A stretch of DNA of 55,039 nt, counting the filler, from Squatina squatina (Eukaryota), in assembly GCA_031763465.1 (NCBI GenBank). It is 4 parts of 4 records of this genome, joined end to end, with 100 filler letters (N's around TTAATTAATTAA, not from the genome) between each part and the next. Parts side by side here need not be neighbours in the genome. Positions count along the whole stretch, not along the records: positions 26,146 to 42,501 come from JARFOE010000176.1; 3 more parts are not named here. One strand, given 5' to 3'. The translations under genes and the position numbers were made by a program. Below the pieces are notes generated by a model. That model saw only the letters and a list, made by a program, of their open reading frames with translations. It was not told the DNA's origin and ran no database searches. Of the stretch, positions 12,326 through 51,919 are shown one piece after another (position 1 is the first letter of the stretch; each line of letters begins with the position of its first letter).

Positions 12326-12624
12326 TGTGTGTCTGGTGGCTGTGGAGCTGGACGCTGAGATGGAATAAACAGCTTCCCAGAGGACAGGAAAGATGAGGAT
12401 TAGTGGGAAAGAAACTGCTGTTCAGACAGTCACTGCAAACAGGCGTTTTGTAGAGAAAGTTCCATAAAAGGTTAAAAAGTAAAATGCAGTCAGGATCTGC
12501 AGGGCTTTTCCTTCTCCCACATTTACCACTGTTGACCTCGTTTTGTGTATGTGGGTGGCGACAGTAGCTGGTGTAGATATAGATTTGATTGCTAGTTGTA
12601 ACTTTGTTGTTTTGGAATTGGCAG

Positions 12625-12781
12625 TTCCAGGTGACCTGGGGAACCAGCTGGAGGCTAAGCTGAACAAACCGAGCGTAGTGCACTACCTGTGCACCAAGAA
12701 AACCGAGGATTATTTCACCCTCTGGCTGAATCTCGAGCTGCTTCTGCCCCTCGTCATTGACTGTTGGATTGACAACATCAG
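12625..12781 (+). CDS. PLA2G15: Lysosomal phospholipase A2 (group XV), exon 2 equivalent
   Basis: [53 protein letters not shown]; PGDLG, VVHYLC and WIDNIR are PLA2G15-diagnostic; ggcAG and GTATGG; 157 bp. Confidence 0.93.
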
Positions 12782-13136
12782 GTATGGCATGAGTAATNNN
12801 NNNNNNNNNNNNNNNNNNNNNNNNNNNNNNNNNNNNNNNNNNNNNNNNNNNNNNNNNNNNNNNNNNNNNNNNNNNNNNNNNNNNNNNNNNNNNNNNNTAG
12901 AGGTGCTATATAAATGTTGCTATATATATGGATTTGTGTTGATGTATTTTTATAGACGGGTAGGAGCTAACTTGGTGTTTTCAACAGTAGCAATTTCTGT
13001 TTAGCATTATGCAGTTAAGATTCTTTAAAAGTGCATTGTTATACATCATTTTAATTGGGCCATGTGGGAGGAAAATGTAAATCTTATTTTATTCTTGAAC
13101 AGCACAGTGAGTTCTCTCCTTTTTCTTTATCTCCAG

Positions 13137-13361
13137 ATGAAAATGGCCAATATTTCAAGGATCTACAGAAGATGATTGAATCAATGTACGAAAAGTATGG
13201 TAGTCCCGTTGTCCTGATAGCGCACAGTATGGGAAATCTCTACACACTCTATTTCCTCAACCATCAGCCGCAGGAGTGGAAAGACAAGTACATTAAATCC
13301 TACGTTGCACTGGGGGCTCCTTGGGGAGGTGTGTCGAAGACTTTGCGAGTGTTGGCAACAG
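13137..13361 (+). CDS. PLA2G15: PLA2G15 exon 5 equivalent with catalytic serine
   Basis: ENGQYF...[18 protein letters not shown]...[18 protein letters not shown]; AHSMG nucleophile motif; ctccAG and GTTGGT; 225 bp. Confidence 0.93.
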
Positions 13362-13553
13362 GTTGGTCATAGGGACACGTCCAGCGCGAGAATGTAAAAA
13401 CACTAGAGTGTTCTTCACTAACTGACAACATTGTAAATGAAGCATGCATGTGGTTGTGTTGCTTTCATTTGCGATTATACTAAAACATTTCATAATGGGA
13501 AGAATAATGGCACAGTGCGTTGGTGCATAAGGCATTATGGCAGAGAAATGTAG

Positions 13554-13653
13554 NNNNNNNNNNNNNNNNNNNNNNNNNNNNNNNNNNNNNNNNNNNNTTA
13601 ATTAATTAANNNNNNNNNNNNNNNNNNNNNNNNNNNNNNNNNNNNNNNNNNNN
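13554..13653. other. Artificial scaffold linker
   Basis: 44 N + TTAATTAATTAA (13598-13609; stops in all six frames) + 44 N. Confidence 0.97.
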
Positions 13654-26045: not shown

Positions 26046-26145
26046 NNNNNNNNNNNNNNNNNNNNNNNNNNNNNNNNNNNNNNNNNNNNTTAATTAATTA
26101 ANNNNNNNNNNNNNNNNNNNNNNNNNNNNNNNNNNNNNNNNNNNN
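26046..26145. other. Artificial scaffold linker
   Basis: N run with TTAATTAATTAA at 26090-26101. Confidence 0.97.
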
Positions 26146-27610
26146 ATGCCATCGCAATATATAGCTACATATACATTAAAGATTTTTTTAAATCACATTA
26201 AAGGAAAGAGACGGAATAAGTCCAGGTGAATGTGCTTTGGTGGTAGCCAGTTGTACAGTTAACCCCTTGCTGTGTGTATGAGTCTGATAATGTTACCTTC
26301 CAAAATGCTTTTAGCCAGGAGGCTGGGAGTCCGAGGGTAACGCTGGTGAGATGCTCTGCGGACTGAGGCTGTGCATTCCTTGCCACTCGCACCTTTCTTC
26401 ACCTTTTGAGACCAGGAATTACTTAATTAATCCCTCCTATAAATCACCTTATAAAACTCTAATGTTATACAAAACAGTGCATGCACCACCGTCCGAACAT
26501 CACCACGCCCTAATTATCTATTTGGTCGCTCTGGAACAAACCTTGGACTGTGAAATAAACCAACAACTTCCTATTCATTTGCTAAAAGTCTAGTTAATCG
26601 TCTGTAGTGGTCTTTTACTGACTATTCGTCTGTTGAACCCTTTATGATTTGATCAAACCGGATTTAAATTGCTCCCACTGTAAACGGCAGTTTAAAGGTT
26701 TGTTTTCCACAATACTTTATACAGATTTGAAGTTGGCCGCGCTTTAAATCGAGGTACCAGTGGATTTATAGTTTGTTTTTCAAAAATCGGCACCTGTACT
26801 GTTTCTGGAGCTAAGTATAATTGGAAATCTAATTCAATTTGTTCTGAGTGGAGTGAGGTACTGGTGCTAGAAGTTTACATTAGCTAAATAAAAGGATCTT
26901 TATTTCATTTATTATCAGAGTACAAAACATTTCAAAGGCATTAAGCCGTCGACTTCATCTTATTTCCTGAAGAAGTTAGCATTAATTATATATGCAATAA
27001 CTATAAAAAATTTAATTGTGAATATTAGGAAATGATTTATTCTGTTGACACAACCTATATAACTCCAGGAGCACAACAGGGTGAATAAAACACAGGTGTA
27101 ATTTGTAAAGTTAACTTGCTTATTACAGACCTGGCTTCGGAACAAAAATCTTATTAAATTGGTGCAGTAAGGTAAGTTTTAAACCTTGTCTCTGTCACAG
27201 CATGCCGGTGTTTAAACTGTCCTTGTGCATTTTAATAAAAGTTTTCCCATGATGAGACCTAAAGATCAGTGTTCAGCAACATTGAGTTCGTTCTCTGAGA
27301 TCAGCTGTTATGCTAGACTTCCTCACAACCTGTCCCGACCCCATTAAACCCATTCCAAAATTGCTAACATCACCTGCAAATGTTAAGTGACTTTATTTAA
27401 AAAGCCGAATTATCAACTTGCTGACAATTGAATCTGTTACAGTCTATCTTTATATGTTACTTGACTAGCTATTTTCGGGTACAATTCGCATTTGAAAAAA
27501 AATCCTAAATATATAATTAATCATGGGTGAGAAAGTCCAACAGAAATACTTATTAATATTGCTGATGGCCGAATACTCTTGGACCCCTGAATTAAAATGT
27601 GGAGTCTCAC

Positions 27611-27860
27611 CTCGGTGGCTTGCTGTCTCCTCAGAGCTACCTGGGCTGCCATCACCCTTTGCCTCTCCACCACCAGCAGACAGTTGGTGCACTGACAGTC
27701 TCTCCAACGACAGAACCTCTTGTGTCCTTGCAGACAGGAGACAACGCCGTGGTTCCTGCAGCGAGCGCACTTGGGGCTCCTGGCCAGCCTCCGCTGCTCC
27801 GGGGCCGGCTTCTTTGCCTTCTTGTCCCCATTAATCATCCTCTCCTCTTCCTCCTCCCAC
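27611..27860 (-). CDS. DMRT2: DMRT2-type DM-domain coding segment (dmrt2b-like); 5' boundary uncertain because it abuts a LINE fragment
   Basis: [61 protein letters not shown] is the DMRT2 DM signature; donor GAG|GTGAGA directly after QQATE. Confidence 0.88.
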
Positions 27861-27889
27861 CTTAGGAAAGCCTCCTGCTTCAAAGTGCC

Positions 27890-28226
27890 ATGGTACATTG
27901 TACCTGTTGGATAGGATCAGTTTCTGTGGATCCTCATTCTCTTTCTTACCTGGGTTCCCGTTATTCTGCACACTATTGGTCACACCAATCCCGTTCTGAG
28001 CCTGCACCTCTCTATGAAGTATGACTGAGGTCTGGAGCAAACTGTCCAGATACTCCTCCCTCTCCCTTATGTGTCGGAGTGTCTCCAACTCGCACTCCAG
28101 CTCAATGACTCTGAGCCAGAGAGATTCGAGATGGAGACATCTACTGCAGATGCGTTCGCTTAGGACTGTCTTGCCGTCCACAAATTCCCACATACTGCAG
28201 TTCAGACACACAACCTGCTCTGCCAT
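27890..28226 (-). mobile_element. CR1 LINE ORF1 N-terminal fragment (zinc finger / leucine zipper); probable 5' UTR extends toward 28462
   Basis: MAEQVVCLNCSMWE...ICSRCLHLESLWLRVIELECELETLRHIREREEYLD...LSNRY is the recalled CR1 ORF1 pattern. Confidence 0.8.
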
Positions 28227-28562
28227 ATCTTCGTTGAACCTTTTATATATTTAATTAGTTAAAATCTTTATTCAACGATTATATATAGTTATCAGAATAT
28301 TATATTAATACTTTTTAGCTCAGAAGAGACAGGACAGAATAGGGGAGGAATGGGAAGAGTAGGGGAGGGGGGTAAATAAATATATAATTCAGAGGACTGC
28401 AGATTAGCACAGAAAAAAATAATTTAGAGCGGCGCCTCTGTTGGGATGCTTCTTGCATTAATNNNNNNNNNNNNNNNNNNNNNNNNNNNNNNNNNNNNNN
28501 NNNNNNNNNNNNNNNNNNNNNNNNNNNNNNNNNNNNNNNNNNNNNNNNNNNNNNNNNNNNNN

Positions 28563-28704
28563 CCCCTTTTTCTTCTTCCTCTACACACCCCAGCCTATCG
28601 TCTTGGGAAAGGCAGTTCTCTAAACTTTCCACATCGATTTCCTCCTCGTACATCCCATTTGATTGCTCGAACAGCGAGTCCGCCTCAGAAGATTGAGCAG
28701 ACAT
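28563..28704 (-). CDS. DMRT2: N-terminus of a DMRT2-type protein, truncated by gap
   Basis: MSAQSSEADSLFEQSNGMYEEEIDVESLENCLSQDDRLGCVEEEEKG contains the DMRT2 N-terminal EIDVESLE motif; same strand as, and upstream of, the DM segment. Confidence 0.72.
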
Positions 28705-30084
28705 CTGGAGCACGCCGGCTGCTGACGCTGGAAAGAATGTCGACACTTTCGGGAAGTATTACAACTGTCGGTTTTCGTGGTTGTCAGCGCTGTGCTGTAC
28801 TTGGCCTCAAATGGTAGCTGGACGTTGAGTGGCAGGAAGAATCTACTTCTAACTCCGACCTCGCCAGGAGTTCCTCGCCTCCACCTCTTATTCCTGGGCT
28901 AAAGCGACGCAACACTATACAGTGACCGACCTCCCTGGCCCACGTATACCTGTCTCTCCAGACTTATCTCTTACGTCTATCGCTGCATTTAACGAACCTT
29001 CCTTGCATTTACCACCCTGAGTAACTTAACCACTCGCAACGTCACCGAGAACCTTGCCATCAGCAGACTTAACTCCTAGGGTGCTGGAGTTCATTTTGCA
29101 CCTTCAAACAATCCGATTGTCATACAAAGCCCACATATTAGAAGCTACGATTTTCCTAAGTGAGCTCTTAGAATCATCTCGAGTTTAAGTCCACTGGGCT
29201 CTGCTTCTGCTCTGTTTCCCATCTTTGAAAAAAATGAATAAAGTTCTTTAAAAAATAAAGATATTGGAGCATGAAAATACCAAAACATTGCTACAGCACT
29301 TGCTGAAATTAAACTTACACAGCTTCCATCGTGTAGTTTCACAGTGGTTTACTAAGATGCATGTTACATTTTAAATATGAGTTACTAATTGTGTGATTAA
29401 TTAAATCACGCCCTGATATTGGAACACTTGTATCTCCCAAAAGGTTGGGATTCGGAAGCTACGAAGAGATCCAAATCACAGGATGAGACATTCAACCGTA
29501 TCTAACAGGCTTCACGTGAACTCTGAAAAGCTTCACTGAAATTGTTTAATAATTGCTGTCTCCTTTTAAGTATTCACTTAGCTCGTGTCCCTTCACTTTG
29601 CTGCTCGCGCGGCGTGAATAAATCCTGCTCTGTGAATTTCATTTTAATTTAATTGGGCAAGACCTGAAAAATTTAAAGACAAAATATCGTAGTCTGGATC
29701 GCTGTAAATAAACTCTTCGCTAACCACTGTAGCAGTTAGCAGTGGTTTAAAAATAACAGCAGCACTGTTCGGGCTGATCGGATTCCTGAATATTACAACA
29801 CACAGTGCTGGCTCACTCACTCCACCACAATGCTTCTCTCCCTACACACATACTGAATTGGTAAATTTGCCATTGTCTTGACTTAATAAGACGGTGATCC
29901 ATACCTGATCTTTAGTTATTGTGTCTTTTTTAAAAGGTTTGGTAACGACCATGCAGATTATGTTTCATTTTATTTTTGTCCGTTTTAAATTTTGTCCCCA
30001 TATAAACTACGAAAGAGAAACTTTACTCAATATTTATGTATGGAGGATTATCGTGTAATCGACGGCCCTTTAATTCTCTTGATA

Positions 30085-30252
30085 CAAACGCGCGCATACC
30101 CACACAACAGTTCTACACACAAAACATTCCTACACATCGATATACACGCAGAGACGCACACACATACGCAGATACACAGATTCAAATACACACTCAGACA
30201 CACACAAACAAGCACACTAATACAGATGTACAAATATACACAAACACACGTG
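30085..30252 (+). repeat. Degenerate CA-rich microsatellite
   Basis: acacacatacgcagatacacaga-type low-complexity run adjoining a gap. Confidence 0.8.
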
Positions 30253-31321: not shown

Positions 31322-31718
31322 CCGGTTGCTGAAGTGGGAGCGAGTCCGCAGGCGCCGTCTCCTCCGGGCTGTTTCCGCCTCCACCTGCTGAGCACAGTCT
31401 ATCCGGAGGGGCCGAGTCCTCGAGTGTCTCGGGGGCTGGATACATGGCTCTGTAATCCCCGGGAAGGACCAGATTGCAAGGATTCTCGTTGCTTTGCTGC
31501 CTCCTGAGGGCCACCTGCGCGGCCATGACCCGCTGTCTTTCCAGGATGAGGATGCACTTGTCACAAGTGCAATCTTTGAAGCGGCAGTAGCGTTTGTGCC
31601 CCTTCAACCAGGACAACACCCCGTGGTTCCGACACCGAGCGCACTTGGGAGTTCTCGGAGAAGGTGCTCGGGAAGACGCGCTGGGTATGTACAGGTACGG
31701 TGGGCCATAGCTATTCAT
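31322..31718 (-). CDS. DMRT3: DMRT3-like first coding exon with complete DM domain (divergent; candidate paralog)
   Basis: [10 protein letters not shown]...[54 protein letters not shown]; [20 protein letters not shown] is DMRT3-diagnostic; phase-1 donor G|GTAAGG. Confidence 0.9.
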
Positions 31719-37275: not shown

Positions 37276-38537
37276 ATTAGGCAGAGTCAATGTGTTCTTA
37301 TGAAAGGAAAATCATGTTTGACAAATTTGTTCATTTTTTTGATGATGTAACCAGCAGGGTAGATAAAGGGGAACCAATGGCTGTAGTATATTTGGATTTC
37401 CAAAAGGCATTTGATAAGGTACCACATAAAAGGCTGCTAGGCAAGATAAGGGTGCATGGGGGTGGAGGTAATATATTAGCATGGTTGAAGGATTGGTTAA
37501 TGGACAGAAAACAGTACAGATAAACGAGTCATTTTCAAGTTGGTAGCCTGTAACTAGTGGGGTGCCACAAGGATCAGTGTTTGGGTCTGGATGAAGGGAC
37601 CGAGTACATTGTATCCAAGTTTGCTGATGATACAAAGTAGGTGGGAAAGTAAGCCATGAGGAGGACACAAAGAACCTAGGAAAGGGATTATAGACAGGTT
37701 AAGTGAGTGGGCAATAAGGTGGCAAAAGGAGTATAATGTGGGGAAATGCGAACTTATTCACTTTGGTAGGAATAATAGAAAAGCAGAATATTTTTTAAAA
37801 GGCGAGAAACTATTAAATGTTGGTGTTGAGAGAAATTTAGGTGTCCTCATACAGGAAATACAGTTAGCATGCAGGTACAACAAGCTATTAGAAAAGCAAA
37901 TGGTATGTTGGCCTTTTTTACAAGCGGGTTGGAGTACAAGAGTAGGGACATCTTGCTTCAATTGTACAGGGCTTTGGTGAGACCACACCTGGAGTACTGT
38001 GCAAAGTTTTGGTCTCCTTATCTGAGGAAGGATATACTTGCCTTTAGAGGCGGTGTAGTGAAGGTTCACTGGATTGATTCCTGGAATGAGAGGGTTGTCC
38101 TCTGAGGAGAGATTGAGTAGATTGGGCCTATACACTGGAGTTTAGAAGAATGAATGGTGATCTCATTGAAACATACAAGATTCTGAGGGCGAATGATGGG
38201 ATAGATGCTGAGAGGTTGCTCCCCTTGGTTAGGAGAGTCTAGAACTGGGGAGCATAATTTCCGGATAAGGGTGTTGGCCTTTTTAAGACTGAGATGAGGA
38301 AGAACTTTTTCACTCAGAGGGTTGTGAATCTTTGGAATTCTCTACCCCAAAGGGCTGTGGATGCTGAGTCATTGAGTAGATTCAAGGTTGAGATGGATAG
38401 ATTTTTGGACTCTGGGGGAATCAAGGGATATGGAGATCGAGTGGGAAATTACAGTTGAGGTTGAAGATCAGCCATGATTTTATTGAATGGCAGAGCAGGC
38501 TCGAGGGGCCTACTCCTGCTCCTAATTCTTATGTTCT
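37276..38537 (+). mobile_element. CR1 LINE, RT region through 3' UTR; frameshifted and non-functional
   Basis: KGKSCLTNL, VYLDFQKAFDKVPHKRLL, SGVPQGSV, KFADDTK, YRALVRPHLEYC; tail cctactcctgctcctaattcttatgttct. Confidence 0.95.
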
Positions 38538-41787: not shown

Positions 41788-41910
41788 GTAACTCCCGTCC
41801 GGATCTGCTTACAGTCTAAATCCTGAAACTTGTACTTAATTATTGAGCCTTTTTTTTTCCTGCATTTGTCCAGATTTTAAGCCTGAAAGGGTTTTTTTTT
41901 CTGTAAATAG

Positions 41911-42063
41911 TTGTAAACTTTTGTGCGCATGGTATTACACCAAACGGAGGCTGCCAGTACCTGTGCTTACCTGCTCCCCAAATCGGCACCCACTCTCCAA
42001 GATACACATGTGTTTGCCCTGACAACATGGAGCTTAGTTACGATATGAGAAGGTGTTACAGAG
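41911..42063 (+). CDS. LRP8: LRP8 EGF-C exon
   Basis: [51 protein letters not shown]; aatAG and GTACGT; 153 bp, phase 1-1. Confidence 0.92.
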
Positions 42064-42329
42064 GTACGTGTATCCTTTCCGCTTATGAATTTTTAATGGT
42101 TCAGAGAATTTCTCAGCTCATCAAAGACAGAATTTCTTCACATGCTGTGGCTCTTTTCTCTAGAAGACTGAAGGGCAGTGTTCCCTGTAATTGTTTTGGG
42201 CGTTTCACAGCCTCCTTTAAGGGCCATTCAAAATAGTGCGCATGCATGGTTTGTACGTGGAAAAGTCAGCTGTGCAGGATCCCTGAAGCACTATGCGGCT
42301 TAAAGGTAACATTGCTGAGGGGTGACCTA

Positions 42330-42501: not shown

Positions 42502-42601
42502 NNNNNNNNNNNNNNNNNNNNNNNNNNNNNNNNNNNNNNNNNNNNTTAATTAATTAANNNNNNNNNNNNNNNNNNNNNNNNNNNNNNNNNNNNNNNNNNN
42601 N
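42502..42601. other. Artificial scaffold linker
   Basis: N run with TTAATTAATTAA at 42546-42557. Confidence 0.97.
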
Positions 42602-42675
42602 AGGGTGTGAATACAATTTCCAGAGGCCCCCAGTCAGCCTGCACAACACAAATGTTGCAATCCAGATTAACTCAC

Positions 42676-42802
42676 CCAGTTTACTGTTTCCATCCTGCTG
42701 ATAATCTGGGAACTGTCCCTCGGATGGAACGCTGACTGTACGTCGCAGCATTCGTCCTTTTGAGGATTCCATCTGCTGGTCCTGCAACATGTCGACATGC
42801 AC
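42676..42802 (-). CDS. RASAL2: RASAL2 (nGAP)-like N-terminal internal exon
   Basis: VHVDMLQDQQMESSKGRMLRRTVSVPSEGQFPDYQQDGNSKL matches recalled RASAL2 KGRCLRRTVSVPSEGQFPEYPPEGATKL; atgcAG and GTGAGT; 127 bp. Confidence 0.82.
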
Positions 42803-43271
42803 CTGCATGAAAATGAGAATAGGTAACAACTCCATCAATATCAAGCAAAGTTTAACGTCAGCACTATGACTATTAGAAACTTGAGGCACTCTTTTCTATG
42901 TATTGAAACAGCCAGACACGAGAGAAAAACCAGCATTTTAACTGCTACAACCTAATTTGCAAGAACTCTCAAGAATTGACCTCCCACACAAATGGGCCCA
43001 AGCATGTGTAACCAGTGTGGTTTACGTTCAAATCCTGCAGACCTGAAAATGGAGGGCTCAGACCCATGGTGTCCCTTCTACAAAGCAGAGCAATTAACTG
43101 CTTCACTTTTCACATTATACCGGTACTTCGGGGAGAAAAGGGGCAGAATAAAACCCATTTGGCTTCTAAATTATGCCATTGTCCAGAATTTGGGCTGTGA
43201 CGAACAGGCTTCAGATCCCAGAGTTGGGTCAGCTTTCAGACCAGCCAGGAAGTGGTCGTCTTAACTGAGGA

Positions 43272-45077
43272 GATGGAAAGCAAGTTGCTCTCACTGCCAT
43301 TTACCTAGTGAATGGTGAGGTAAAGTTTGGAGACAGCAGTGTCATTGGATCGTTTGAACATGTCAATGGTCTTCATTGGGGTTCTGTTTGTTGTACAGGG
43401 GCTCTGGCATTACTTGCTGTTCAGCATAAAAAACATGTAACTGTATGGCAGTTACAAAACAGTACATTAGAACACAACAAACTTTTGGTTTCCCAAACTT
43501 GTGAACTGGGAGAGATTTTTCCTATATTGCAACAAGGCTGTGTGTGGCATCCAAAACATGATGCTTTAGTGGTACTAACAAAGAGAGATGCCTCAGTGTT
43601 GTTTGCAGTGCAGATTGACAATCGTAGAGTTAAAGCAGATATCAAAGGTAGTGGTTTGATTCACTGTGCCTGTTGGACTGCAGATGGGAATCGTTTAGTG
43701 ATTGCTGTAGGCAGTGCCCTTCATTCTTACATTTGGAATAATACTCAAAAGACACTTCATGCATGCAATTTCTGCCCTATGTTTGATGTCGGAGGATGCA
43801 TCTGTGCAATAGAGGCTTGTTTGGATTTGCAAGTGGTTGTGACAACTGAATTACCCCTTGATAAAATCTGTGGTCTCAATGCTGGTATTGCCTTTGATGT
43901 TACACCGACGTCAGAGTCTGGATCTTTGATCTCACGACCCACAATGCTGGCTGTTGATGAAAACCGTTACATGGATACAAGAAGAAAATCAATAGATTCT
44001 TCAAGGTCTTTGGCAGAAGACCCAATGCTTTCATCATCTGGTCCTTTAGATCTGACGCATCTTCTGGCAAATCATCGAAAATCTGATCCCAATCCCCTTA
44101 TTCACCTGAAGCACAGGGATTGCCTTACTGGAAGTGGTCACGACTCTTCACATCTGATTCTAGTAACTTTTGAGAGAAAGGTGACAAAAACTAGAAAAGT
44201 AAGCATCCCTGGAATTCTGGTCCCTGATATCGTATGTTTTGACCCTCATCGATGTACAATTGCTGTATCATCCAACACTTGTAACATGATATTGGTATAT
44301 TCAGTGACCCCTTCAAGTATGCCCAACATTCAGCAAATTCAGTTGCAAAAAAATGAACGGCCAAAGGGCTTGTGTTTTCTAACTGAAAAACTATTATTGC
44401 TTTTAGTTGGGAGGCAAAAAACAAATGATCTGGCTTTTCTCCCATCTTCAAATTCAGATCGTTATTTCATCAGACTTGTGACTAAAAAGCTATTGTTAGA
44501 TGATGCTTCTGTATTATCGGAGACTCATCAATTTGGGCAGCCTGGTATTAACATCTCTGGAATGAAGAAATATTTTGAAAATCTGTCCAAGGAAGAGCCA
44601 GTTACAGGAAAAGAACTATTATTGCCAGGGAATGGCACAATTCAATTTCCAAACAGTCGACAGGGATTAATAGAAGAAGTAAAGAATGGTAGTAGTGAGC
44701 AGAGCTCAGAAGCAAGCACTCCAAAGCTAACAGAAGGACTCTCGCCCTTTGAGTCTTCAGTGATTTTGAGGAGTTATGGTGCAGAACCTGTAAATAGCTC
44801 CATAACTATGCATGGACCTGGGACACCAAATAGGGATTTAATGAGCCCAATCTTGTTTAGGGGAGACCAAAATACACAGTCACATGCCGGTTCTTTACTG
44901 AATAGTGACAATGCAAATGACAAAATTGAACAATTGTCTAGAAAAATGGAAAGATTATTTGATGGTTTCTCCGAGATGAAGCAGCTCCTTTCTCAAATAT
45001 CAGATTATACAAGAAATGGAAAGAAGTCTTCAATGGCCTATCCATCTGATCCTTCCTTTCTTTATGTCATCTGTCAG
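43272..45077 (+). CDS. WDCP: WD repeat and coiled-coil protein WDCP (C2orf44), large coding exon lacking its first ~28 codons
   Basis: DGKQVALT...GEVKFGDS.VIG.FE, LLAVQH.KHVTVWQL, QGCVWHPK, IHCACWT.DG.RLV.AVGS.LHSYIW, TELPLDKICGLNA; about 600 uninterrupted codons; donor CAG|GTAATT. Confidence 0.93.
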
Positions 45078-46369
45078 GTAATTTTTTTTTCTCTACAATA
45101 TTAACTATGTTGTCAAAAGGTAGATGTTTAGCTCATGCTCTTGGTTACAGAAGTCCAAATTCAGCTTTATTTGATTATGAACGTCATCTCTACTACATGA
45201 AGACTTCAAAATTTTAATCTTCACACTGTATTTTAAAGAAGCTAAACTTAATCCAACAACAGTTGAGACTGCACAAGGCTGCTGTATCATGTGATAAGCT
45301 ATAAAACGGTACTTATTAACAGTTGAAACTTGTTCTTTTAAAACACTTGTTTCATTGTTCTAATTATTTGGTTAGATACTGATTCATTATTTACAATTGG
45401 ATGTGTATAGATGTGAAAGACTCACCATTCAATTTTTATTTCATGATGGGGCTAATCAGATTGGCTCTAAATCATTTTAGCATGAAACAGCTGAAAATAA
45501 AACATTCAAGTGCTTTCAAAATTTAAAAAAAACTTCTGCATTGGAATTCCTATCTTTGGCAATAATGAGGACACAAAAGAGCAGGTATTCAAATTGTCAG
45601 GTGTAAACTCCTTTAGTCAGAGGCTTCCAACATGCTGCCTTGGACGATAGGCGGCCCCCATGCCCTAGTAATCCGGCCCTTGAAAGCCAGGCTTATCTTC
45701 CTCATTTTCTGGTTTGTACTGTTTTAATTTTGGGTGCCCCTTGATTTGGAAAGCACTGTTGCATATTGGCAGATAAATCCTCAATCAGATCAACATTTAT
45801 TATAAGCAACTTAAGATATATGCAAATAAGTGTGAATGCCGATTTAAACTTTGTATGTAGCCCCTGCCCCGTTGAACTATTTTCTCAATCCCTGCAGCTT
45901 CCCTCCTCTTGCTTTACTGTCATTCATCTCACCCTGAACCTCTACCCAGCCCTCTTCTCTCTTATTTTTCAAACCTCTATTTGTTTGTCTGTCTGTCTCA
46001 CTCACAGGTGTAAGCAATAGTTAGTAACTACCTTTTCTATCAGCAAAATAGGTGGAATGGGTGGGAACATGCCAGATGAAATTCAACGCAGAAAATTAAA
46101 AGGTGATACATTTTGGTTGGAAGAATGAGGAGAGGGTACAGAAAAGATTTTTTAGAATGGTTCCAGGTTCCGCTTACTCCCTGGCATTTTTTCAAGGAGC
46201 CCGCTCCCTTCCCGGCTTTTTAAAACATTTTTAACAAGCCCGCACCCGTAACGAAGCGAAGGTGTGCAGNNNNNNNNNNNNNNNNNNNNNNNNNNNNNNN
46301 NNNNNNNNNNNNNNNNNNNNNNNNNNNNNNNNNNNNNNNNNNNNNNNNNNNNNNNNNNNNNNNNNNNNN

Positions 46370-46580: not shown

Positions 46581-48764
46581 AACATATGAATTAAACAGTT
46601 AGCTTCAAAATTGGCATTAGCATGAAAACTTGACCTCTGACCCCTATCTGACTGTCTGTCTTCTCATCTCTTAATGTACTTTCTAAAGTTTATGGAATAT
46701 AAAAAAAAGCTACAACATGTGTATCAGATCATTCTCTGTCTCACATACACAAGCTCTTTTTTATTAAAAAAAAGCACTCAATGTACATTTTGCCTCAATT
46801 GTTTTTCAAAATTATTTGAGAAAAGCTACTCAATAGAAAGTGCTAGAAGTTCATGAAAAATGTCCCATCAGTACAGCTGACTTGAACGGTGCTGATATAG
46901 TCCGGAAAGTTAGGCACACTGGCTATTTTCAGACTACATAATCAAAATTCAACTCATGAAGTTAGAGCTCTGGCCAAAAATACCAAGCCCAAACCCAAGC
47001 ATTAAAAGACAATTCAGTGGATATATTTAATCTTTTTAATCTTTAGACCCTTATTTTGAATTTTGACATTTAAGTTACTGATTAAACAATGCATAAAAAT
47101 TTGAGAGAATTTTAAGCAATTTGTGGGAATTTGGTGGCCAGATTGCACGATAACAGTGGCAGATTTATGTAGGCAAATCCCGTTCTAAATCTGGACGTAG
47201 GAACTTTTCAATGTGGAAAAAGTTGACACAAAAATGTGACAACAGAAGTTATGTTGTGTAGATAGGAAATGCAAACATCAATATATTATGAACAGATAAT
47301 GCAGTGTGAATACATTTGTTATATCACACTACTTTGTTGAAGAAAACTCCATATTAATGCAAGATGCCTCCACATTGATCAATGTAGTAGTCACAAGCAT
47401 ATCAAGTATTGAAAAAAATGGCCTTTTAGCAGTAATAACATTTTTGATTTTAAATGTAACTCATTAGTGGTTTACAATATTTTAAAAATTATGCAGCGGT
47501 ACTGACATTTAATTGGATCCTGCTGGTTATTGACATAATTTGTAATTTTAGTTCTGGCATGAAACATTTGCATTTATATTAAGCCATTGTTCAATACGCA
47601 AACTCGCATCAGTGATACCAAGAACCTTTAACACCTGGGAACTGCCAGTTCTGCACAGTGTTGTCAACATAAATATTATTGAAGCTTGAATATCTGCTCT
47701 GAAGTGTTTTATGTTTAAGCATGCATTGTTATCGATGTTCCAAATGTAACATTGGGCTTTTCAAAGCATACTTCTACGGTGCTGTGTATTGACTTGTCTC
47801 TATGGTTTCCAGGATGATCAATCCTGCTGTCACTTGAGTATGTAAGAGTGTGCTCAGCATGCGCTTTTGCCCAAACAGTGATGGAAACTACCAAAACCTA
47901 GTCAATTTCCAACAAGTCCAAGAAGACAGGGATAGAAGCTTAGACAGTCTGTTTCTTTCATTCAGGGATTGATGGTTGGTGTAAGAATACCCAAAATTAA
48001 TTTACAAAATAGAATTTTTTTTTCCCATTCAGCTAGGATGGCTATGAATTAATCCATCTATAAATAAAATACCCCCACAATACCTTACTTGCAAATATTT
48101 TACCTTGGGTGTTAAAACTATCAATCTTCTTGAGGGACATATTTATTTTATTTTACTGTTTGATGTATTTATGTGCTCATTAAAATGATATGCTGGTGCG
48201 AGGAAATGGAATGCCCTTCCAATTTGGGACCAGTGTCCGCATCAGGCACACTCCAGTTAGATACATCATAAGTTGGATGGAGGATAAAGACCCCTTACTT
48301 TATAATCACAATATATCTTACATCCAGCCGAAAGACTTCCCCTACTGCTTGACATTTCCATTTACCACACCAACTGTCCTTCTGGTCTAGCTGAGTGAGA
48401 TTGCTATTTAACTGAGATTATGAGCAGCTGTATTTATAGATGTGCATCCACTAGGAACTAGATTGAAACAGTTGAAAATAATTTTGCTTAGGACCCCTAT
48501 GGGCATTGGAGAAAAAACTTTTATCAGTCTGGTCTGGATTCAACCTTAGGACTCTGTAGTCCAAGGACAGTATTCCAACCCATAGTATCATCTATGTGGC
48601 AAATGTGCACATTTTAATGAATTCTCATAAAACATGTGTAAATTGTAAGGTCATCCAAGATAGTTTATTAAATTACTATTGTCTAAATTCATTTAAATTG
48701 TTTGGTTGAAAAGAATTACATCTGTAACACATAACATTGCTTTGAATCTAAATTCTTTTTGAAG

Positions 48765-48885
48765 AAAAAGCTGCAAGAAAATATGGTTGTGGATGAAAAA
48801 CGAACCTTTATCCTTTGTGAAGGCAAGCTTCGTCTGAGTACAGTTCAAGAAGTTTTTAATCTCTTTGTTGTTGAAATGTTTTATG
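48765..48885 (+). CDS. WDCP: WDCP next coding exon
   Basis: [40 protein letters not shown] matches recalled [18 protein letters not shown]; phase-0 start fits the previous exon; donor GTAAGT. Confidence 0.9.
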
Positions 48886-49973
48886 GTAAGTGCTTTCAGA
48901 TTGTACATAGGAATTGTATTACGCCTTTCTCTGTAGCGACACAAGTATTTTTGGCATTAGAAACATTAGGCAAATTCTGGGTATGAGATGTTTGGTCCTG
49001 AATCAGAGATGTCAGCTCCGGTTGAAAACATAATTGTGGTTAAAAGCAATAAGCTGCATCCATCTTTCAGATTGTGCTGGAGAGTATGTTTGTGCTTCAA
49101 TCTGAGATTCCTATGCTGTTACTACTGATATAACTGCAGTCACTTATTTCCTTGATTCGAGAGACCGAGCCACCCCTCTTGTTAATGGTGGAAAGATGAT
49201 CACTATCATCTTTCAGTGCCAGTGAGTAGCATTNNNNNNNNNNNNNNNNNNNNNNNNNNNNNNNNNNNNNNNNNNNNNNNNNNNNNNNNNNNNNNNNNNN
49301 NNNNNNNNNNNNNNNNNNNNNNNNNNNNNNNNNTGCAACACTGCATACATTTTCATTACTGCAACTTTATAAGAAACAGATGCAAACAATCATTTTGTCT
49401 TTGAAGTTGGAGTTATTTTGGGAAGCAATTCGGAATGAAATGAAAATGGGACACAGACTCGTAATTTTTATGCTGCTTTCTGTTTTGCTAGTTTAGATGC
49501 AGTTACTATAGATAGAGAAAATTGTACATGACTTCCTTTGTTCGTGGTTACGCTGATAATTATGTTATCCCTTTGACCATTTATTATGATAACTAAAATG
49601 GCTTCTGCAGTTGCAATAACATAAATTGCATTTAAATAAACATTTAACAATGCAACAGAGGACAAAGGAATAAACTAAACACTGGGGGGTAGAAATTTGT
49701 CTTGGGTGGAAGTGCAAGTCAGGAGCTATCATATCGCCGTTTGTTAGAACGCCCAGCATGATATTCAGTTTCATTGACTTCAATGGAACTGACTATCGGG
49801 CGTGGAGTATAATGGGCGGCCAATCTGATACCACCTGCTTAATGCTACTACTCAAGGAATTTCTACCTCGAGAAGTTCACCACACAGAAGCGGCCCATTG
49901 GGCCCATTGTGATGTACTGGCTCTTTGATTTGAACAAACAATACAGCAGACCATTAGGTCAATAAATATGTAC

Positions 49974-50150
49974 CTTAGTTCTTGGAGCGCCAATTTGTTT
50001 CTCATTCGGACTTCTTCTGTTATTGGGTAAAACTGGAATATTAATAACCCAATGACTATCAATCCTGTAGGTGCTGCTCCCACTAGCAGTTTTAGGGTGA
50101 ACGCCACAGGAGGGGGCTGGGAGCATGCTCCAGTTTCATAGCCTGCAAAA
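49974..50150 (-). CDS. MFSD2B: MFSD2-family lysolipid/S1P transporter, penultimate exon; MFSD2B by synteny
   Basis: FAGYETGACSQPPPVAFTLKLLVGAAPTGLIVIGLLIFQFYPITEE; actAG and GTACAT; 177 bp; convergent with WDCP as in human. Confidence 0.85.
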
Positions 50151-51919
50151 CTAGTACACAAACAGGTCGCATCATAAAGCTTTTCTGACACCTATTCTTC
50201 AGCATGCATTTCTCATGTTATGTTACCCCAGTATTGTTATGACTCTAAATGTTATAATTGCAGACAATTTGTACTAGAAATGTCATGTCAAAGTTCTTAT
50301 ACTAGATAGACGGATGAAGTTACAGTCAAAACAGCCATTAAATCTCAAGACAGAATATTCTGCAGGATTTAGTGTCAGCCAATGGAATGAAATCGTCAGA
50401 TCCTTAGGTAATGTAATACCCCATGAACTTCCCCAAATTACTCAGTTTTATGGAAAACCAGAAGGAGAACACCTAGTGTCTCTCTTGCACGTCCCAGCAG
50501 TTAGTTTCAGAGTGACATTTTAACAGATCATCCACTTGCCAGTCCTCTCAATCATGTTACATTACAAACAAAAATTGCTGGAAAAACTCAGCAGGTCAGG
50601 CAGCATCTGTGGAGAGAAAAACAGAGTCAACGTTNNNNNNNNNNNNNNNNNNNNNNNNNNNNNNNNNNNNNNNNNNNNNNNNNNNNNNNNNNNNNNNNNN
50701 NNNNNNNNNNNNNNNNNNNNNNNNNNNNNNNNNNGTATAGGCCAAATGACAGACTCCCCACACTCCCAACTTTCAGTTATCCAATCTACCCCCAGTCTGT
50801 CATCAATATACAATCCTTCAGATATTATAGTATGGACAAAAATTAAAATATGCATTTCATAGGAATCTCTTTCACATCCAAATTACATAGAATCCCCATA
50901 CAATTCATCTGTAGTAATAATTGGATCTTGTGTAAATGAAGAAAGCAAACTGATGTTTGTGCAAAAATGCAATATTTAGATTTTTTCCAGGCAAATATGT
51001 TATGACCCCACACTTCTGTTTACAGATCTTTAATTGTAATATTGACACTACTGCTCAGAAGCAATTATCAGAACTGGTGAAAAAATATGTCTTTAATGCT
51101 TTCTGTCTACAATTTTCAATGGATACTAAGGTGATTTTATTTCTCCCAAGCCATCTATTGTAAGATGCAAAATTCAGACCCTCCTTACATTTTCAATGTG
51201 GAACAGTATAGTCCCTTGTGTGATGCAGATTTAAACATTCAGGATTACCTGAAGGGCCAAGGATGTGAAGAGAAAAGTTGTAGTCAGCTTCACGTAGGGG
51301 CCATGTCTCATCACAAGTTTCATTCCTTTTAGGAAAGGAATTGGTTTGTCTGACTTCACAGTGTAGGGGTCTAACCAAGAAAATGGAACATCAAACTACT
51401 TACCCTTAACATTTCATTAAACAAGTCATGTAATAGTAATAAATAAAAAAATCCCCATCAAAAGACAGCATTGAGTTAGTTAATTGGGTTGGAAGGCTTT
51501 CAGAATCACTTTCAAGGATAGGGTCATGTCCTCTCTCTCTATCTCTGTATTTGTACCTGTTAAGGTCTCTATCGGTCTTCAAAGTGGTTGATTTTGAAAC
51601 ATTTTTGAGAAGCATGAAGAAATGCTGTATAAATGTAAGTCTTACCCAGCGGGAAACTGACAGGACCAGACTGGCTGCCTGTTTTACACAAGAGGTCCAT
51701 TTTACCCGTTGGGCGAGCTAAGTTAAAATGACCTACTTTATTTTTTAACCTTCTCTCTGACTGAAATTTTAATCACATTCCTATTTTGTTTTGTCTTCTT
51801 TAAAAGTAACCTGCACCACTCAATTCTTTCTTCACTCATGCATTTGAATTTTATCCCAAGCCCTTTATTATTTTAAATTTTTTCAATATAGCTCTCTGTA
51901 ATGATATTTGAATTCATAC

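Follow-up and report, generated by a model that had tools for sequence, protein, structure and literature searches.

A CR1-like fragment splits the first exon of dmrt2b in a Squatina squatina assembly, probably through a chimeric contig join

The window analyzed here is a stretch of 55,039 nucleotides from the Squatina squatina assembly GCA_031763465.1, and its top protein matches are shark proteins, Heptranchias foremost. The sequence is non-continuous genome: it consists of 32 contigs of 253 to 3,668 bases and contains 34 runs of N (23 of exactly 100 N, 5 of other sizes, and 6 of 44 N). The six 44-N runs enclose three identical 12-base linkers (13598–13609, 26090–26101, and 42546–42557), so that each of three identical 100-base spacers (13554–13653, 26046–26145, and 42502–42601) consists of 44 N, TTAATTAATTAA, and 44 N and has a stop in every frame. 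The TTAATTAATTAA spacers are artificial linkers between blocks of unrelated genes, and searches for their origin found none. Between the second and third linkers, the minus strand carries the first exon of a dmrt3-like gene together with a dmrt2-like gene, and the plus strand carries an LRP8-like exon (Table 1). Much of this block is lost behind gaps: the later part of the dmrt3-like gene is absent (the Pristiophorus model P0013 matches its first exon only), and tblastn and local alignments place neither residues 166–461 nor the last exon of the dmrt2-like gene anywhere in the stretch. Elsewhere in the window, PLA2G15-like exons (group XV phospholipase A2) occupy 12555–13372 on the plus strand (best PDB match 4x90, E 7e-29; Pfam LCAT), and an open frame with a poly-Glu run (...EEDEEEEEEEEEEDNAEMEVK...) spans 1–330 on the same strand. 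Two copies of another repeat piece, at 2018–2251 and 37951–38186, are 79% identical, and their translations look, by eye, like the C terminus of a LINE reverse transcriptase.

Table 1. Coordinates of the features discussed, counted along the whole window
Feature	Position	Strand	Evidence or remark
dmrt2b second coding exon	26297..26402	-	Open; AG/GT intact; V>A, S>C, Y>H vs four relatives
dmrt2b first coding exon, 3' half, complete DM domain	27611..27858	-	Pfam, tblastn; GT donor at 27610 intact
CAA (Gln) for the invariant Lys of DM motif LKGH	27728..27730	-	Motif count, structures, relatives' contigs
Junction purine tract	27846..27858	-	dmrt2b poly-Glu codons; other frame VGGGR, like CR1 VGGGK
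34 bases read as CR1 ORF1 resumed (HGT...QEA)	27859..27892	-	Protein-level inference from motif spacing
CR1-like LINE ORF1, N-terminal 111 codons (Cys-rich motif, coiled coil, ...SNRYNV)	27893..28226	-	30 homologues, alignment A1, depth
AT-rich, 5' UTR-like stretch upstream of CR1 ORF1	28227..28337	-	Depth, loose ends; UTR identity inferred
Leader at start of junction contig	28338..28462	-	Outside the high-copy repeat; depth 4–13 in bin 28338–28474, 4/4 runs
100-N gap	28463..28562	.	Size nominal; flanking contigs are neighbours by scaffolding, not by sequence
dmrt2b first coding exon, 5' half, residues 1–47 plus 1 base	28563..28704	-	tblastn with P0006, 81% identity; phase 1 end
dmrt3-like paralogue first exon, intact DM domain	31323..31718	-	88% to P0013 over 155 aa; Pfam DM
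LRP8-like exon, synteny marker	41910..42070	+	Best PDB match LRP8 5b4x, E 9.8e-19
WDCP long exon, abrupt start at residue 33 inside a contig	43272..45077	+	Pfam and homologue comparison; used as control

Which DMRT gene does this block hold, and in what state? On the minus strand, the reading from ATG 28704 to the contig end at 28563 runs MSAQ...EIDVESLE...EEEEKG plus one base, and this contig terminates on GGGG exactly where the first exon is split. The Heptranchias dmrt2-like protein P0006 maps by tblastn with residues 1–47 at 28704–28564 and residues 48–131 at 27856–27605; the two halves thus abut at residue 47/48, with zero residues lost or doubled. The DM domain of the 3' half is recognized by Pfam (PF00751, E 2.5e-23) and is of the DMRT2 type, at 96% to P0006. 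All three pieces of the gene are open, with no stop, frameshift, or splice loss over 492 coding bases, and the three splice sites seen (donor 27610, the acceptor before 26402, and donor 26296) are all intact. The N terminus gives local scores of 153–196 to five of six dmrt2b-type proteins of sharks and rays, and 65 to the sixth, as against 34–49 to six dmrt2a proteins; for exon 2 the scores are 139–153 and 84–100, respectively. Judged from these scores and from the LRP8-like neighbour rather than from a tree, the gene is of the dmrt2b type, dmrt2b and lrp8 being linked genes. Both starting claims of the preliminary description, that this is a dmrt2b-like gene and that its first exon is split, are thereby upheld: the N terminus (28704–28563) and the DM half are parted by the gap plus 607 real bases. 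About 44 bases are also missing at 27601/27602, 8–9 bases into intron 1, with the donor itself intact; they are present in run X7, from one of the relatives considered below, and by record offsets probably also in the runs of the other three.

Cartilaginous-fish dmrt2b (Heptranchias perlo XP_067845835/6 and Heterodontus francisci XP_067892581; P0272, P0006, and P0009) is the best match for all three pieces, with 96% identity over the DM half, 81% over residues 1–47, and the same exon junction after QQATE. The dmrt3-like and LRP8-like neighbours are a further shared feature. The window gene differs from its shark counterparts in the split at 47/48 with a CR1 piece, in three substitutions (K>Q, S>C, and Y>H), and in the absence of the last exon. 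The dmrt3-like gene lies directly upstream of dmrt2b, near the LRP8-like exon, and looks like a second dmrt3 kept in sharks, an assignment made without a tree; in the Pristiophorus model P0013 it is fused to another DM gene. Gar and coelacanth have a dmrt6–dmrt2b cluster, and the accessible text of the source describes the locus as dmrt6–dmrt2b only (PMC6737965). The same source records an earlier loss of dmrt2b in tetrapods (PMC6737965), and in zebrafish the gene is needed for pharyngeal cartilage (PMC6310889). Among the papers listed by literature searches on shark dmrt2b, we found no report of a broken copy.

Is the exon whole in related animals? A search of sequencing runs listed 15, the best of which shared 0.10 of sampled words, and four were used, one per organism code; no RNA run and no sexed DNA run appeared on the list. 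Because none exceeded 0.10, the source animal is not among them. The four runs were compared over 26146–30252 at 80% likeness, and their flanks differ from the window by 6.9–8.5% on one side of the insert and 7.5–7.9% on the other; at 6.9–8.5% they represent other species. In each of the four, 27855 and 28563 follow directly on one another within one contig, free of any insert and with 707 positions of the window skipped, and these bridging contigs extend 206–254 bases on the shorter side. The insert is absent from these relatives, which are species other than the source animal, and the whole exon 1 is the ancestral state. The view that the first exon is normally one unit is therefore correct.

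What, then, separates the two halves? The 607 real bases include a high-copy repeat, whose summed contig depth over 28064–28200 reaches 9,617–61,142 in the four relatives' runs, compared with about 6–17 in single-copy flanks. The leader (28462–28338, 125 bases) is at or under single-copy depth in the relatives, and other copies of the repeat diverge at 28231 and 28292. The open reading frame from ATG 28226 matches 30 library proteins at E ≤ 0.001, and these ORF1 homologues share the Cys motif, the coiled coil, and NR[FY]. It also matches, at 73%, a repeat piece inside the Heptranchias model P0121. A weak match, P0148 from Pristiophorus japonicus (E 5.7e-4), continues into a GDSL esterase domain; of the two marks of a CR1 ORF1, the insert itself thus has the Cys motif, while the esterase occurs only in this homologue. 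CR1 ORF1 is described as carrying a zinc-finger-like motif, and the esterase is named in the title of a reference cited there (PMC4316615). Pfam returned no family for the ORF1 piece, and Atlas no usable match. As a sequence, the insert fits a CR1-like LINE ORF1, to which we assign no subfamily name. CR1 ORF1 pieces also occur joined to host domains (tetraspanin, Ig, zinc finger, and ILEI) in seven public shark-type gene models (P0121, P0126, P0128, P0132, P0134, P0149, and P0150); these are probably annotation errors, with some possibly true exonisation.

The CR1 piece is a 5' part only, without the esterase domain, ORF2, the 3' hairpin, or the microsatellite tail. Usual CR1 copies have lost the 5' end and kept the 3' end (PMC4316615; PMC4255032), and the preliminary description was right on both counts, that the 5' part of a CR1 lies between the dmrt2b halves and that a copy keeping this end is atypical. 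The downstream junction falls inside ORF1, and because the 5' end is kept and the 3' end lost, the reverse of usual CR1, retrotransposition did not make it. The relatives' copies leave the window sequence at 27893, as loose ends, and their consensus continues ORF1 in frame. In three of the four homologues checked (P0129, P0123, and P0148), NR[FY] and HGT are 23 codons apart, compared with 16 nt in the insert, whose ORF1 accordingly looks, at the protein level and by motif spacing and alignment A1, as if it had a 53-nt frameshifting deletion. The longest CR1 pieces in the relatives (nine pieces) differ from the insert copy by 14.6–19.6%, twice the flank distance, a figure biased upward by the tendency of long Logan contigs to represent old copies. 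Matches at 95% or more are numerous among short records, a count that includes a microsatellite.

The junction between CR1 and the DM half sits, as first described, inside one contig (26146–28462). Its first three bases (GGG) are also the last three of the N-terminal contig, and in all four runs three letters fit both sides; a check for a target-site duplication (TSD) returns the same three bases, with the upstream junction falling in the gap. Alignment A1 sets KVGGGR of the insert against QVGGGK of P0129, and the same bases begin the dmrt2b poly-Glu run. Judged from the proteins only, CR1-like and dmrt2b sequence thus appear to overlap by about 13 purine-rich bases, at 27858–27846. The junction, initially placed at about 27860–27895, thus lies at about 27858–27846 and not at 27895; the direct match to CR1 ends at 27893. 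When the 25-residue junction peptide was compared with P0129 by BLASTP, no alignment resulted, and scans of metagenome contigs for CR1 DNA downstream of the junction gave 478 pattern matches with the window ORF as query and 199 with P0129, none of them confirmed. Because these searches came back empty, the assignment of HGT and VGGG rests on motif spacing and alignment A1. The HGT-to-GD spacing is equal (21) in the window and in P0129; we considered long in-register homology as its meaning and rejected it, since VGGG can be matched only after a shift of 2 bases. Relative to the DM domain, the CR1 ORF1 lies in another frame, and it stops at TAA 27833–27831.

Does the window contain other breaks of this kind? 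The long exon of WDCP starts abruptly at 43272, within contig 42602–46269, and its residues 1–32 are nowhere in the stretch, although the region is present in 120/120 homologues among the matches listed. Among 11 Logan ORFs inspected, from other species, several whose reading reaches or passes the 3' end of this exon carry the N terminus in one frame with it, so those species have no intron at this point. An intron as the cause of the break is accordingly unlikely, though less firmly so for sharks, and there is no pyrimidine tract. Conserved-site changes in WDCP number 5/352 in the window, compared with 2–26 in eight other cartilaginous fishes; with only 5/352, the gene looks functional and the break looks artefactual. 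The WDCP junction that the preliminary description had pointed out is thus real in the sequence, and the break at 43271/43272 is probably a chimeric join. It follows, by this reasoning, that mid-exon joins are not rare in this assembly. About 470 bases from the start of the WDCP exon, an opposite-strand exon of 41 residues (42677–42799) matched no Pfam family and had no usable Atlas match; we take it to be RASAL2/DAB2IP-like. The next WDCP exon is at 48762–48887 on the plus strand, and an MFS_2-type exon, below the Pfam cut-off, lies tail to tail with WDCP at 49880–50188 on the minus strand; MFSD2B and WDCP are linked genes.

The DM-side contig differs from the relatives in its coding sequence as well. 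Its DM domain keeps the zinc ligands but reads LQGH at a motif whose lysine presumably contacts DNA in DMRT1. All 121 motifs that could be matched in a set of 151 proteins have lysine at this site, and so do DMRT1 (4yj0), Dsx (1lpv), and all contigs of the four relatives' runs. In place of the whole first exon and the invariant DM lysine of dmrt2b, the window has a split at 47/48 and K>Q. Among the rows listed, exon 2 shows V>A, S>C, and Y>H plus two silent changes against all four relatives, and S>C and Y>H fall at sites invariant in 8/8 orthologues. On the DM side, conserved-site changes total 3/81 in the window, compared with 0–3 each (sum 10) in eight orthologues, and in the N-terminal half 0/12. 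Scaled from WDCP, 0.48 changes would be expected as against the 3 seen (Poisson P 0.013, Fisher P 0.039), in a rough, post hoc test with a single control gene. These counts suggest relaxed selection on the DM-side contig. Damage-type errors were rejected as the source on two grounds, the clean state of WDCP and the kinds of change involved (A>C, C>G, and twice T>C).

How did the join arise? We weighed the readings by judgement, not by computation, and we think it rather probable that CR1 and the DM half were joined chimerically within a contig, via microhomology, by a fragmentary short-read assembly or already in its library; the fusion is real in the file but probably not in the animal. On this account, a decayed old CR1 copy at another locus would have in common with dmrt2b exon 1 a short purine-rich tract, which in the gene encodes poly-Glu, and the assembler would have written out a path from the CR1 5' part through the shared tract into the DM half as a single contig. 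What is truly the 5' half of the exon would remain as a contig of its own, ending where the shared tract begins, and the scaffolder would place both contigs adjacent across a 100-N gap. Three parts of this account are inferred: how long the microhomology is, that the CR1 copy belongs to another locus, and which assembly step produced the join. The observations on which the account draws are the split, the relatives' intact exon, the 3-base overlap, the decay of the CR1, the WDCP junction, and the missing exons. It is favoured because WDCP shows a second in-contig mid-exon break, without decay, in the same 55 kb, and because the window is so fragmented, with 32 contigs, 23 fixed 100-N gaps, three N44-TTAATTAATTAA-N44 linkers, and missing exons. 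It is also favoured by the N-terminal contig, which stops no more than 3 bases from the junction and has no foreign base; most real insertions would be expected to leave part of the insert there. Further points in its favour are that the CR1 piece has a 5' end and no 3' end, that it is decayed (the 53-nt deletion) and stands 15–20% from the relatives' longest copies while the flanks differ by only 7–8.5%, that the CR1-like reading runs through the junction bases, and that the dmrt2b pieces are open, with intact splice sites and 0/12 changes in the N-terminal half. The chimera account is weakened by K>Q, S>C, and Y>H, for which it does not account, and by the 3-base overlap, which is unlike plain de Bruijn contigs and needs a trimming step. 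Of the four readings offered at the outset, a chimera is thus the best supported, and disruption of the gene draws some support from K>Q and the two other conserved-site changes.

The same substitutions lead into the alternatives in which the fusion exists in the animal. The sole dmrt2b copy may really be disrupted, fixed or heterozygous, through a rearrangement or a microhomology-trimmed CR1 insertion, with the gene decaying. K>Q, S>C, Y>H, and V>A, all where the four relatives retain the conserved residue, are consistent with this, as are the loss of about 44 bases near the start of intron 1, a GGG that could be a 3-base TSD (coelacanth CR1 TSDs have 2–10 bases; PMC4255032), and the precedent of dmrt2b loss in tetrapods (PMC6737965). 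Yet a decaying gene sits poorly with 492 coding bases free of stop, frameshift, and splice loss and with the 0/12 of the N-terminal half; the LINE end is the wrong one, a breakpoint on the shared purine tract would need chance, and WDCP has the same kind of break without decay. We consider such a disruption unlikely; under it, a shortened protein from ATG 27838 would keep the DM domain, with K>Q. An intact dmrt2b might instead coexist with a decaying copy of only part of the gene (the DM half, intron 1, and exon 2), which microhomology-mediated repair attached to an old CR1, the assembler having kept this duplicate beside the true N-terminal contig. One step would then explain both why the N-terminal contig stops at the tract and why the join falls on microhomology, and also why conserved-site changes are confined to the DM-side contig. 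However, the contrast of 3/81 with 0/12 is too slight to carry weight, the flanks have diverged alike on both sides (6.9–8.5% and 7.5–7.9%), and self-BLAST of the stretch finds only the dmrt3-like DM domain and no second dmrt2b copy. This duplicate, too, we hold to be improbable.

Two further readings keep the gene at work. In one, the insert is a new TE-derived intron, removed by splicing between a GT that would open the gap and tccaacAG, with 16 residues added to the acidic linker. Both acceptors suggested earlier exist as AGs, and only this one (27905–27904) is frame-compatible: the N-terminal contig ends in phase 1, which the acceptor needs, and it has pyrimidines at 10/18, equal to the true exon 2 acceptor, but the second (ttcctaAG, 27862–27861) misfits the known end. 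The required GT donor would lie, unseen, within the gap, and a gene rescued by splicing would be expected to retain the invariant lysine; the intron is very improbable. Hardly more credible is a functional, truncated DM gene driven by the CR1 promoter, possibly sex-linked, in the manner of dm-W or figlaY. The in-frame ATGs named for it, 27898 and 27838, do exist and are both in frame with the DM domain and exon 2, and TE-shaped truncated duplicates have precedent (PMC9250109, PMC13232571). Against it, the out-of-frame CR1 ORF1 would act as an upstream ORF, K>Q alters the invariant lysine, and the source is dmrt2b, with its role in zebrafish pharyngeal cartilage (PMC6310889), not dmrt1. In its fullest form, a real partial dmrt2b duplicate would have had its 5' end replaced, via microhomology, by a CR1 promoter and ORF1 fragment; once transcribed, it would yield a DM protein that is shortened at its N terminus and altered at the DNA-contact lysine; this protein could be a dominant-negative DMRT partner, possibly encoded on a sex chromosome. 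To this we give only the slightest chance. In the group to which this shark belongs, no male-determining gene was found on the Y (PMC11406177).

Both parts of the fusion are known as sequence, dmrt2b on one side and CR1 ORF1 on the other. Low-coverage short-read assemblies yield repeat-mediated chimeric contigs, and the window resembles these in its join at a short low-complexity tract between a high-copy repeat and unique DNA, in its orphaned partner contig, and in the second case at WDCP. It departs from the usual chimeric contig in that the k-base overlap is missing (3 bases only) and in that the amino-acid changes need a separate cause. The insert shares with CR1-clade ORF1 (e.g., P0148) the Cys-rich N-terminal motif, the coiled coil, SNR[YF], HGT, and a very high copy number; unlike a CR1-clade LINE, it is a 5' part only, with a 53-nt deletion, and meets the host sequence at a purine tract in its interior. 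Xenopus dm-W is similar in outline, in that a pair of DM-domain exons is joined to transposon-derived sequence (PMC9250109). However, dm-W derives from dmrt1, keeps its DM exons whole, takes its 3' coding exon from a hAT DNA transposon, is W-linked, and has been shown to work (PMC9250109), whereas in the window the donor is dmrt2b, the TE is a LINE on the 5' side, and the case is known from sequence alone. Likewise, the likeness to tilapia figlaY is one of outline only (PMC13232571); what defines dm-W and figlaY is duplication, sex linkage, and expression.

If the join is a chimera, the locus is a warning: at least two in-contig mid-exon joins within 55 kb mean that gene-loss or TE-fusion calls need read support. 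A major result would follow only if an expressed, sex-linked duplicate were true, and the chance of that is small. If the fusion is real in any form, an outcome to which we give, in total, appreciable but lesser weight, it would represent a lineage-specific loss of dmrt2b or a decaying duplicate in a lineage whose close relatives keep the gene. It would then offer a dated natural knockout of a gene that zebrafish need for pharyngeal cartilage (PMC6310889).
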